Shown here: positions 46,174 through 50,640 of the stretch, in pieces | Layout: the number at the start of each line of letters is the position of its first letter | Position numbering within the stretch: position 1 is the stretch's first letter | DNA from: Eledone cirrhosa | Taxonomy: Eukaryota | Reading direction: 5' to 3' | Length of the DNA: 64,000 nt | Assembly: GCA_964016885.1 (NCBI GenBank) | Contig: OZ024741.1 | Span: 60,760,001 to 60,824,000, forward strand | Program-made: the position numbers and the translations under genes | The notes under the pieces: generated by a model | What the model saw: the letters and a program-made list of their open reading frames with translations, nothing else | What the model was told of the DNA's origin: nothing | Databases searched by the model: none

Positions 46174-46730
46174 TATATATAGGAAAAGTGTAAGTTTCTA
46201 CACAAAACGAAGGTTATAGAGAAAATTGAGGTTGGTAATGGCACATGGAATATATAAGAGACAGAATACTTTTTTGTGAAAAAACATATCATTTTATAAG
46301 GTAAGGAAAGAATAAAGGGTATTAAAAATGACCGGTTTCGATGGGTCTGCAAAAGCCATCTTTTCAAATGTTGATTAATATTAAGAAAAATTAATAATAA
46401 GAAGAGTTAAAATTTGAGATTTGAAAATTCAAGTATAAAATTCAGTGTGGGATTTCATAGTAGTTTTCATCTTGGTAGCAGCAAGTTGACTGCTGTGTGC
46501 CTTTCTGGTAGTGAATGAGGAGTTATTTGTGGGGAATGGTTTTTTTTTATAAAGGTCAGATTTAGCAATGGCCAGATGGCCAGCTGCTGGTCAGTGAGGG
46601 GGTGGAAGCAATATACATACATATATCTCTCTGTGGTCGGTAGGAGAGGGGAGAGTGATAGAAAGGGATTTAGTGCACTTACACCTATATATAAGCACAT
46701 GCCCTCATCCACACACACATACATATACAT

Positions 46731-46781
<51 letters not shown>

Positions 46782-48915
46782 CACATACATACATACACAC
46801 ACGCATACATATACATACACACATACAGACACACACATATACCCATACACACACATATATATACACACACACACATATATATACATACACATACATCAAG
46901 ATACACACATACAAACACACACACACACACACACACGCACACACACATACACATACATACACCCACACACATAAAGAAATGGCCTCCAAATATATATATA
47001 TACATACACATATATTTTTTCCATAATATAAGAAGTTAGGACAGTGAAATTAAAATACAAGTCATTCTGATCACATTGAGTTCTTCATGTAGATTGGGCC
47101 CCGCAACCGACAGTGGTGAATTCTGTGTGCGCATATATATATAGATATATGTGTGTGCACGTGCAGGGTTTAACATGGATGTGTTGGTCACACAAAGGCA
47201 TGGTCTGTCAACGAATAAACCTGATTCTACAGAATTGGTCTCTGGTCTTTAATAGTAGTGATAATTATATACATGCACACATACACACACATATATCTGT
47301 CACTCCGTGCGTATGTGTGTTTATATTTTATGACAATTCTATTGGGGTGATAACCCGTTTAGTTTTGGTTTAAATTTGTTAAGGAATAGATTTTCTTTGT
47401 TTATTCTTTGTTGCTGTGTGAACGAATCTGAGCACTTGTAGAAGGGGAAGATTTTAAAGTTGGGTAGTGTCATTCCTGCGCAGTTCGCAATATGGCTGCT
47501 CAAGGGGATTTTTCTTGTGTTAGCGTCCCGGATTTGTTGGCGGTGGAGGGTCATTCTTTTGCGTAATGAGGTGCCCGTCTGTCCTATGTAGTTGTGTTTG
47601 CACCCACCGCAAGTTATTGCGTAAATCAAGTTCTCCGAGTTGCAGGTGAAATTGTTTTTTACTGTAAATGTTTGGCCATCTTTAAATGTAAATTTTTGTC
47701 CTTCAGTGAAGTAGAGGCACGTCCCACAGTTTGTTCTACCACATTTGGTAACTGTAGGGTTGAGGATTGGTTTGGGTATATTTGGTCCAGTGAGAATGTG
47801 TTTTAGTGATTTGGGTTGTCTTTTACTTTTAAGGATCTTGTGTGTTTCAAGAATAGACTTCATTTTTACATCTTTAAGTAGGATGGGGAGGTTTTTGTGT
47901 AGGTGATCAAACATTTCGGTATTTCTGGGGTTGAAAGTGGATACATATGGCAGGGTGTTGAGTGTGGTTTTCTGTTTGGTATTGTTAAGTTGATGGGGAT
48001 TTAGGTGTTTAGCCCTGTCTATTCCATTGTTGATTATTTCAGGTGGAAATGCTCTTAAGATAAGGGTGTCTTTTAGTTCCTTTAGTCTTTGCTCCTGTTT
48101 AGGTGGATCTGATACTATGGTACATATACGTTTGGCCAAATTGTAAGGAATGTTAAGTTTTGTATGTTTTGGGTGACTTGATGTGAAAAAGAGGTATTGC
48201 TTGGAATCTGTGGGTTTATAGAATATATCTGTATCTAATTTCCCGTCTATTACAGAGATGAGAATATCCAAGAAGGCTAATTCCTTGGGATTGGATTCCA
48301 TTGTGAATTGTATGTTATTACCTATGTTGTTTATCATGTTTTTAAACATAGTAAGTGAGTTGATGTCTTCTTGCCATAGGATAAAGCAGTCGTCTAGATA
48401 TCTTTTCCAATTGGCTTTGAGGTGTGTGTGGAAAGAGTCTCCAAATAAGAGAAGGGACTGACTGTATATTTGTTGTTCATGGAATCCCATGACTAGGTTG
48501 GCATATATGGGTGCTACTTTCGTGCCCATTGCAGTACCTGATACTTGTCTGTATGTTGAACCATTGAATGTGAAGTAGTTATTTTGTAGGATAAAGCGGA
48601 GTCCGTCAGTGATAAAATCTTTGTTGATGCGTGTCGGTATTTCTGATGGGTGTGTGTTAAGCCAGTATTGGACTGCTGTTATTCCATAGTTGTGGGGTAT
48701 GTTTGTGTAGAGGTTTATTACGTCAAAGGAGACAAGAATTGTATTTGCACTTACTGTTTTAGGGAGGTGTTTCAACATGTCAAGGTCATCTCGTATGTAG
48801 CTCTGTATATGTTGTAGAAAGGGTTTCAGTAGGATGTCCAGAAAGTTGCTAAGTCTGTGGGTTTCACATGCAGGGCCTGTTATAATTGGCCTGAGTTTTA
48901 GGTCTTCTGGTGGTG
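46174..48915 (-). mobile_element. 5'-truncated Neptune-like PLE with open RT + GIY-YIG frame (47339-~48912) and ~1.2 kb 3' tail with a U3-A8 HHR-like motif at ~46325-46372
   Basis: RPII, SFDVINLYTNIPH, GTAMGT, RYLDD, CGRTNCGTC, LIYAITC..YIGQT; tail TTGAAAA-GATGG..CCATC-GAAA-CCGG-TC. Confidence 0.92.
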
Positions 48916-48929
48916 TTAGTTCAATGTAA

Positions 48930-50437
48930 TTGTTGGTTGCTGGAAAACAACCACTTCCTCTTTGACAACGAACTTTATCTACAAATAAAAGGAACAGCCA
49001 TGGGTACCAAAGTGGCCCCTACATATGCAACGCTCGTTATGGGTCACTTAGAGGAAAAATTATATTCCCAACTAGAGCTAACATTCAGTCACGACTTCGC
49101 CTTCTACATTAATAAAAACTGGAAACGTTACCTAGATGACTGCTTCATCTTCTGGAACAGAAGCCAAACAGGCCTACAAAAATTTTATTCGATCCTAAAC
49201 AGGCTTCATGAAGCTATACAATTCACTATGGAATGTAACGAAAAGATATCCTTTCTAGATATCCTCATCATTAAAGAAGGGGAAAATATCATAACGGACC
49301 TATTTTGCAAACCCACTGACACACACCAATACTTAAATTGCCGGTCAGCACACCCCTCACATACGAAAAGGAACATTCCCTTCAACATGGCAAGGCGCAT
49401 CTGCACTATAGCAACACACCCCGTACTACAAGAAAAAAGATTATGTGACCTGAAAAAATTCCTTAAAAAACAAGAATACCCGATGAAACTCACCAAGGCA
49501 GCCATCTCCAAGGCTAAGAACATCGCAATAACAACACTGAGAAAACCAAACCCACAACATAAAAAATAAAACCCTGCTATCTCTTTAGATGTGGAACCTG
49601 TGAACTCATCGAAGAGGGCAAACAGTTGTCCTTCAAAAACCATGATCATTTCAAGGTCAATGCTAACATGAACTGCAAAACGAAAAGCCTAATATATTGC
49701 GCAACATGTCCACAGTGTAAAGAGTATTACATTGGGGAAACCGGAACGGGACTACATGATAGAGTCCGGGTACATAAACAACAAATTAAAGACCCCACAG
49801 TCAGAAATACCACATGTAGCGCACACTTTGCATCATGCGGGAAGGGAAAATTCACAATCTTCCCTTTCTTCAAGATATGTTCGGATAACGAACATTTCCG
49901 CAAATATAAAGAAGAATTCTTCATTGAAAAATTTAAACCACTACTGAACACGAAAAAATGAATTAACACTCGGAGGTAAAATTCCATTTCACTACCCCCC
50001 CCCTCTTCTTATGTATACACATGAATATCTGAGTGAACGGTGAGACACACACATATATGTGTTTAGGTATGTATGGATGTATGTACGTGTGGGTATATAT
50101 GTATGTGGGTGTGTGTATATGTGTGTGTGTGTATATATATGTATGGGTGTGTGTATGTTTGTATGTGTGTGTGTATATATATATATATGTATGTGTGTAT
50201 GTGTGTATATATATGTATATGTATATGTATATGTATGTATGTGTATGTTTGTATATATATATATGTGTATATGTATATATATATATATATGGATTGGTAT
50301 ATATGTTTATATGTGTGTGTATGTATATGTATGTACCTATATATATGTGTGTGTGTGTATGTATGTGCATATATGTATATATGTGTGTACATATGTGTAT
50401 GTTTCTGTATGTGTATATGTATGTAGATGTATGTATA

Positions 50438-50474
<37 letters not shown>

Positions 50475-50640
50475 TTAGAAACACACAGATACATGCGGAC
50501 ACACACATATATACATGAATGCATCCGCACCCAACTGTGAGTTAAGGGTGCCAACTTCACCGATGTTGCTCAATGAATGACTGGGACAGACCAATTCAGT
50601 TTGAACTAGACTGAACCAGTATCAGAGTTAAAAATACATT
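48930..50640 (+). mobile_element. Second, different Neptune-like PLE fragment (RT 48930-49569, GIY-YIG ~49590-49961 after an internal deletion/frameshift) plus tail
   Basis: GTAMGTKVAPTYA, RYLDD, LIYCATCPQC..YIGETG..RVRVHKQQI; sequence clearly differs from the minus-strand neighbour. Confidence 0.88.

Follow-up and report, generated by a model that had tools for sequence, protein, structure and literature searches.

Two Penelope-like elements of different families joined head-to-head at their truncated 5' ends in a TA-rich region

Introduction

Inverted, 5'-truncated copies of a single family are standard for Penelope-like elements (PLEs), as described in the available text of two accounts (PMC8557442, PMC3846280), and the first of these names the origin of the inverted structures as an open problem. 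Self-priming has been proposed for Penelope inversions (PMC3846280). Arms of the same family are compatible with fold-back, one-RNA and two-RNA models alike. When the arms belong to two families, the junction can only reflect two templates or a deletion that came later, and counts of such junctions by orientation therefore test the two-RNA model. The locus studied here lies in a window of 64,000 nucleotides (64 kb), the whole stretch of DNA that was analysed. It carries two PLEs of different families, here called A and B, that meet at their 5' ends, and it raises the question of whether one insertion event could have drawn on two different RNAs.

Results

Element A (minus strand) and element B (plus strand) belong to different Penelope-like families, and their cut 5' ends face each other across one intervening base (Table 1). 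Reading frames, Pfam domains and family contigs all bear out the initial annotation, which had described two PLE RT-endonuclease families placed head-to-head.

Table 1. Coordinates of the A/B unit and of related features in the window.
Feature	Positions	Strand	Basis
Second hetero-family head-to-head unit, non-coding tandem families	38286..40122		both outer ends in TA
(TA)n run holding the 3' end of A, left target half	45953..46181		sequence; left edge by eye
A, 3' tail	46182..47338	-	matches second family-A copy at 53874-55454
A, 5'-truncated open frame: RT core, thumb, CX4CxxC linker, GIY-YIG endonuclease with CCHH	47339..48939	-	Pfam, alignment
Inverted repeat across the A/B junction, 6-bp stem and 8-nt loop	48934..48953		sequence
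Junction base (C)	48940		family-A matches stop at 48939, family-B matches begin at 48941
B, 5'-truncated RT and GIY-YIG endonuclease	48941..49961	+	Pfam, protein alignment, family contigs
B, start of 3' tail, leading into TG/TA microsatellite	49962..50470	+	contiguous with B stop codon
Ambiguous segment: end of B tail or 3' end of minus-strand element D	50471..50635		first 68 nt recur at 51061-51128
Element D, non-coding same-family inverted pair	50636..51458		50641-50967 vs 51126-51452, 99.7%
Alternative end of B tail (candidate assignment), non-coding, pyrimidine-rich into TA run	52231..52927	+	sequence
Second family-A copy, shorter	53874..55454	-	self-comparison; 5' end abuts TA directly

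The frame of A runs without a stop for 531 amino acids, from 48934 to 47342, and matches both RVT_1 (E 2e-7) and GIY-YIG (E 1e-5) of Pfam in one frame. Compared with full-length relatives, it has lost about 225 N-terminal residues (P0001 aligns from about residue 222). The linker cysteines are C398, C403 and C406, and the CCHH residues C442, C445, H464 and H481 are invariant across 16 sequences. The 3' end lies at 46182, within the TA run. The tail contains a CA/TA microsatellite (about 46700-47030) and, by pattern scan, a degenerate hammerhead-like motif at 46329-46369, which is absent among the 150 of 412 Rfam matches listed. The second family-A copy, which served as the control for a solitary insertion, shares the 3' end of A, in (TA)n; the two copies differ by indels.

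Element B begins just upstream of RT motif B and lacks about 356 residues relative to full-length relatives. It is more damaged than A, whose frame is intact. We identified a 3-nt deletion near 49246 (with a loose end at 49245), a stop codon at 49567-49569 and a 214-nt deletion at 49586. The last of these, with a 1-nt overlap at its edges, causes a frameshift and the loss of the first cysteine in the linker. It is defined by record 7 of run X1, which aligns to B over record positions 1-264 and then 478-861, and by eye the codon for the first cysteine in the family sequence falls just inside it. This 214-nt deletion may have arisen during reverse transcription or afterwards. B retains the linker CxxC and, in its alignment to A, shows the same CCHH pattern.

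The two elements share 49% amino acid identity over 197 residues of the RT and 45% in the endonuclease, and 61% at the DNA level. The closest relatives reach 62% amino acid identity for A and 68% for B, and among named sequences the nearest to both are uncharacterized mollusc proteins and entries assigned to mollusc symbionts. A tree of 37 rows, built on the RT portion that A and B have in common, places the two in separate subclades (starred support); the rows are unnamed or 'uncharacterized' relatives, with no named Neptune or Nematis reference among them. A has the organisation of an EN+ PLE, RT followed by a C-terminal GIY-YIG domain in one frame, and the frame of B is broken by its lesions. 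A CX2-5CxxC linker lies upstream of GIY-YIG, and both family-A copies end in (TA)n, in keeping with the microsatellite insertion bias of Neptune. According to the available text of PMC8557442, this linker is common to Neptune, Nematis and Naiad and absent from Penelope/Poseidon; the combination of CX4CxxC, CCHH and a C-terminal endonuclease thus fits A to Neptune (or Nematis) rather than to Penelope/Poseidon or Naiad. By these motifs, A and B appear to fit the earlier label 'Neptune-like'.

To place the breakpoints, contigs of 4 of the 14 listed runs (X1, X2, X4 and X12) were compared with positions 47340-50030. Family-A contigs track the window up to 48939 and then diverge (X1 record 1, with loose ends in X4 and X2), X1 record 1 extending a further 555 nt. 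Family-B contigs enter the window at 48941 and have a different sequence upstream (X1 record 4 and X4 record 18, with loose ends in X4 and X12). X4 records 17 and 18 are also among the records that set the two breakpoints. Because the family contigs run beyond both positions, the copies of A and B are both 5'-truncated, as had been proposed. The analysis confirmed the A/B fusion as a genuine feature of this assembly, with breakpoints at base resolution. The ends first given for A (about 48912) and B (about 48930) were wrong: both lie inside A and are corrected here to 48939 and 48941. Likewise, the supposed junction zone of about 20 nt shrinks to the single base 48940. This base is C here and T in the listed family-B continuation, and the C is absent from the listed continuations of both families; it is either a variant of B or an untemplated base.

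The sequences of A and B overlap by 0 nt at the join. Zero overlap is the most frequent random outcome (57%) and does not discriminate between models. No TA run separates the elements, in agreement with the initial annotation, the longest within 250 nt of the junction being 4 nt. The stem of the inverted repeat that crosses the junction is matched in length by 1.0% of 20,000 random A/B joins, a post-hoc figure for a single junction. Weighed as an aid to joining, this hairpin is unexplained, and by eye the hetero-family junction at 39432 has no such stem. None of the contigs or read pieces among 24 of 4071 listed spans the A/B junction, which is thus known from this assembly alone.

The tails of A and B point outward, as annotated, but 50640 is no more than a candidate end of B, since 50471-50538 recurs at 51061-51128 and perhaps belongs to a separate element. 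The 3' end of B is either 50635 or about 52927. In the first case, D would include 68 nt copied from the tail of B as template; in the second, D would be a 590-nt unit, extended by a partial tandem copy and by an inverted arm, that interrupts the microsatellite of the B tail. The segment at 52231-52927 is weakly similar to the A tails (z 1.6 and 3.9), and tail comparisons did not decide the end of B. No hammerhead-like motif passed the pattern scan in either candidate B tail, the segment 50471-50635 included. The right arm of D terminates in TA. Taken over 50471-51458, D has the classic PLE architecture of a partial tandem with an inverted arm, but is non-coding.

The window as a whole is eukaryotic repeat DNA and consists of (TA)n runs filled with PLEs and non-coding tandem partners, together with a LINE fragment that we take to be RTE-like. 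Its microsatellite content may point to an octopus-like host. The stretch 38282-40122, previously named as a companion chimera, is indeed a second hetero-family head-to-head join. Its arms belong to related families (67% over 160 nt) and overlap by 5 nt at 39432-39436. The plus half has a hammerhead-like match to Rfam HH9 (E 2.5e-6, below the gathering score) and the minus half a hammerhead-like motif by eye. Clear hetero-family head-to-head joins in the window number two, each between relatives. Self-comparison also yielded nine same-family inverted pairs; in six of these, a TA run lies no more than 100 nt from each outer end. The pair at 6721-8793 is head-to-head, as its frame and motif show, and a 310-bp array and D have this orientation by eye. 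Inner junctions overlap by 3 nt in the array and by 3 nt in D, in addition to the 5 nt noted above.

Several other structures were observed in the window. The 310-bp array (55760-63016) is a non-coding tandem of near-identical units whose orientation flips at 58174-58176, within its overlap; both outer ends lie in TA, and a hammerhead-like motif is visible by eye. At 6721-8843, a third Neptune-like family (58% amino acid identity to A in the endonuclease) has an inverted 3' arm of its own family and, on one end only, about 37 nt of extra sequence. The element at 10375-11960 is a near-full-length, GC-richer PLE RT with frameshifts, whose thumb is cut by a 159-nt palindromic repeat and whose 3' half is missing. 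A 200-nt internally palindromic element occurs at 35144-35350, 40507-40710 and 53355-53562, with TA on both sides and 90-93% similarity among copies. A fourth, partial copy (45588-45704) abuts, without a TA spacer, a minus-strand segment that bears a hammerhead motif at 44207; this contact is a possible third hetero-family junction, of either orientation. At 29315-29375, a minus-strand PLE has a short TA run beyond its 5' end and, after the run, its final 20 or so bases again in inverted orientation, forming a small fold-back around the run. Further RT/endonuclease frames lie at 2134-4083, 28528-29322 and 41384-43391, each with its 5' end at a TA run; the latter two are related to each other (33-35% amino acid identity) and have no Pfam matches. 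The minus strand at 20668-20781 carries a 5S rRNA-like sequence (Rfam, 72 bits), probably a pseudogene or the head of a SINE. Nearly all of the listed Rfam matches in the window are microsatellite noise, and microsatellites likewise dominate the repeat search.

Beyond the window, contigs of run X2 contain strand-switch joints within family A at 47743/48574 and 47774/48560 (2 of the 15 joints listed), which point to same-family inverted junctions of family A elsewhere in that genome. Summed contig depths were not taken as copy numbers. None of 79 metagenome PLE loci has a PLE frame on the opposite strand upstream of the match; most appear to be single elements of nearly full length on short contigs, which makes them uninformative for junctions. 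At one of the 79 (L016:3174-3572), a minus-strand PLE endonuclease converges on a plus-strand PLE frame. In prokaryote genomes there were 24 pattern matches, none of them to a relative.

A and B have diverged from their families to a similar extent. Against the closest X1 contigs, A has 23 differences in 1600 positions and B 16 in 1026 (Fisher p 0.87); against X4 contigs, the counts are 11 in 623 and 6 in 365 (p 1.0). These counts omit the low-depth diverged records 2, 3, 6, 16, 19 and 20 and the X2 records. As both halves stand about 1.5% from family contigs, the ages of A and B appear similar; the rate ratio is 0.92, with a hand-calculated 95% range of about 0.5-1.7 that excludes only large age differences.

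We also searched for the 5' parts that the two elements lack. The missing N-terminal part of A, represented by 82 relatives, matches only A itself and other PLEs in the 64 kb, and that of B, represented by 111 relatives, matches only A and other PLEs. These other PLEs lie near 2000, at 10000-11000 and near 41000. The 30-nt continuations of families A and B have at least 10 mismatches everywhere in the window. The initial annotation had singled out a nested insertion, with the missing 5' part of one element lying beyond the other, as the finding that would overturn its reading; within 64 kb, neither part is found beyond the partner.

Discussion

Given the anatomy described above, we lean towards a single insertion site at which the two strands of the TA target each primed synthesis on a different RNA and the resulting cDNAs were end-joined. 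A (TA)n run would be cut on both strands by a Neptune-type Penelope endonuclease. Reverse transcription would start on a family-A RNA from the top-strand end and on a family-B RNA from the bottom-strand end, and both cDNAs would halt within the RT coding region. They would then be joined end to end without homology, through end joining or through an RT jump that adds one base. The product would be the usual Penelope inverted, 5'-truncated copy, with its second arm from another family. That two syntheses took place in one event, and how their products were joined, is what we infer.

Several observations speak for one event. The A/B join is exact and has no TA spacer, whereas the 5' end of the solitary A copy lies directly in TA. 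A and B have diverged from their families to a similar extent, neither missing 5' part is in the window, and same-family inverted pairs are common there. A second hetero-family junction has the same geometry, again between relatives. Against one event stand the small number of hetero-family cases examined (two), the overlap of 0 nt compared with 3, 3 and 5 nt in three other junctions, the 3' end of B, which is not pinned to a TA run, and the PLE at 10375-11750, whose 3' half was lost at an unrelated palindromic repeat and which the two-template model leaves unexplained.

Fold-back self-priming and one-RNA twin priming were rejected for A/B because the arms come from different families. Each arm encodes its own endonuclease and stop codon, contrary to a twin-primed product. 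The identities of 49% (amino acid) and 61% (nucleotide) and the separate subclades likewise set the pair apart from a canonical same-family inverted unit.

The main competing explanation, which we regard as somewhat unlikely, is that two independent insertions entered one TA run head-to-head and that a deletion afterwards removed the TA between them along with part of each 5' end. Two insertions from one period that a deletion brought together would also show a blunt junction and equal age, and because the target is TA, any target-site duplication is hidden. The window is crowded with TA-targeted insertions, families A and B are both abundant in the runs, and the family-A copies differ by indels. 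B has 214-nt and 3-nt deletions and a stop codon while A is intact, which shows that deletions occur at this locus, the larger of them with an overlap of just 1 nt. Small deletions in Drosophila, moreover, often cross the junctions of neighbouring transposable element copies, as stated in the available part of PMC5932611. Deletion is expected to be blind to orientation and relatedness, yet both clear hetero-family joins are head-to-head and between relatives, and the equal divergence of A and B would need the coincidence of one burst. A rearrangement bridge seems improbable to us: here A and B would have begun simultaneously at two TA sites and their cDNA ends would have been joined, leaving the breakpoint of an inversion, deletion or translocation. 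Its sequence anatomy would be identical, TA targets would mask target duplications, and a tumour inversion with two distinct 5'-truncated L1s joined 5'-to-5' provides a precedent (available text of 10.1101/2024.08.27.596794); the window holds no positive sign of such an event. The sequence of one locus cannot separate a two-template event, a later deletion and a bridge.

An artefact of assembly or of a chimeric read, fusing two high-copy repeats, we consider very improbable. The lack of a spanning contig among the 24 of 4071 pieces would agree with it, as would the disturbance of assemblies by PLE tandem and inverted structures that is mentioned in PMC8557442, but A and B have nothing in common at the join from which a misjoin could arise, and each carries private differences of about 1.5%, as old single copies do. 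The compared runs, of which 24 pieces were listed, may not derive from this individual. Nested insertion, with the displaced 5' part further off or lost, is the least credible of these accounts. Nesting is frequent in the window, where D lies within or beside the B tail; it would, however, set a 3' end rather than a 5' end against the remainder of the host element, and the searches of the 64 kb with relatives' N-terminal parts and with the 30-nt continuations both argue against it.

We advance only tentatively, as a doubtful generalisation, the notion that PLEs routinely insert via two RNAs on both strands of a microsatellite, where the second RNA or subunit can come from a family only 49% identical; the two RNAs are perhaps held by one RT dimer. 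On that view, the familiar inverted Penelope unit would arise from two RNAs and not from a fold-back, and hetero-family junctions would serve as a countable genomic marker of cross-family co-insertion. The A/B locus on its own is a dead pair of transposon fragments.

Comparison with known systems

Like canonical EN+ PLE units (Neptune, Penelope/Poseidon, Naiad), the A/B pair is 5'-truncated, head-to-head and spacer-less, with its 3' ends outward; microsatellite targets and, at times, a junction palindrome are further shared features (available text of PMC8557442 and PMC3846280). In the canonical unit described there, both arms derive from one element, in contrast to the 49% amino acid identity found here. 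The interpretation of A/B as a two-template product is plausible but unproven. We found no different-family PLE junction in the literature searched, a scope that leaves aside older subscription papers on PLE structure, nor in the available parts of PMC5932611, PMC13282606, PMC12602865 and 10.64898/2026.07.22.740005; such a junction may already be in print. For the PLE families of Adineta, the available text of PMC3846280 reports no cross-mobilisation, which counts against the two-template reading.

The required activity has a parallel in PAc, a Poseidon element protein from Anolis whose in vitro activities include cleavage and extension of both strands and for which a dimer is predicted (available text of PMC11167929). 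As in the model for A/B, this is a Penelope-like RT-GIY-YIG protein acting on both strands of AT-rich DNA. The PAc case differs in clade (Poseidon), one RNA species was tested, and product joining was not studied in the portion of that work available.

Two-template products have been described for L1. Nine two-transcript insertions were recovered in cells, some in opposite orientation, and their joins were read as ligated DNA ends extended on different templates (available text of PMC11702581). As at A/B, sequences in opposite orientation are joined there by microhomology or untemplated bases. That system is human and involves an APE endonuclease, poly(A) priming and induced cells (PMC11702581), whereas at A/B the RT is Penelope-like, the target is TA and the copy appears to be inherited. 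L1 bridges, as presented in the available text of 10.1101/2024.08.27.596794, resemble A/B in that two distinct 5'-truncated elements are joined at their 5' breakpoints; they differ in that they join distant loci and that both elements are L1, while A/B unites two families.
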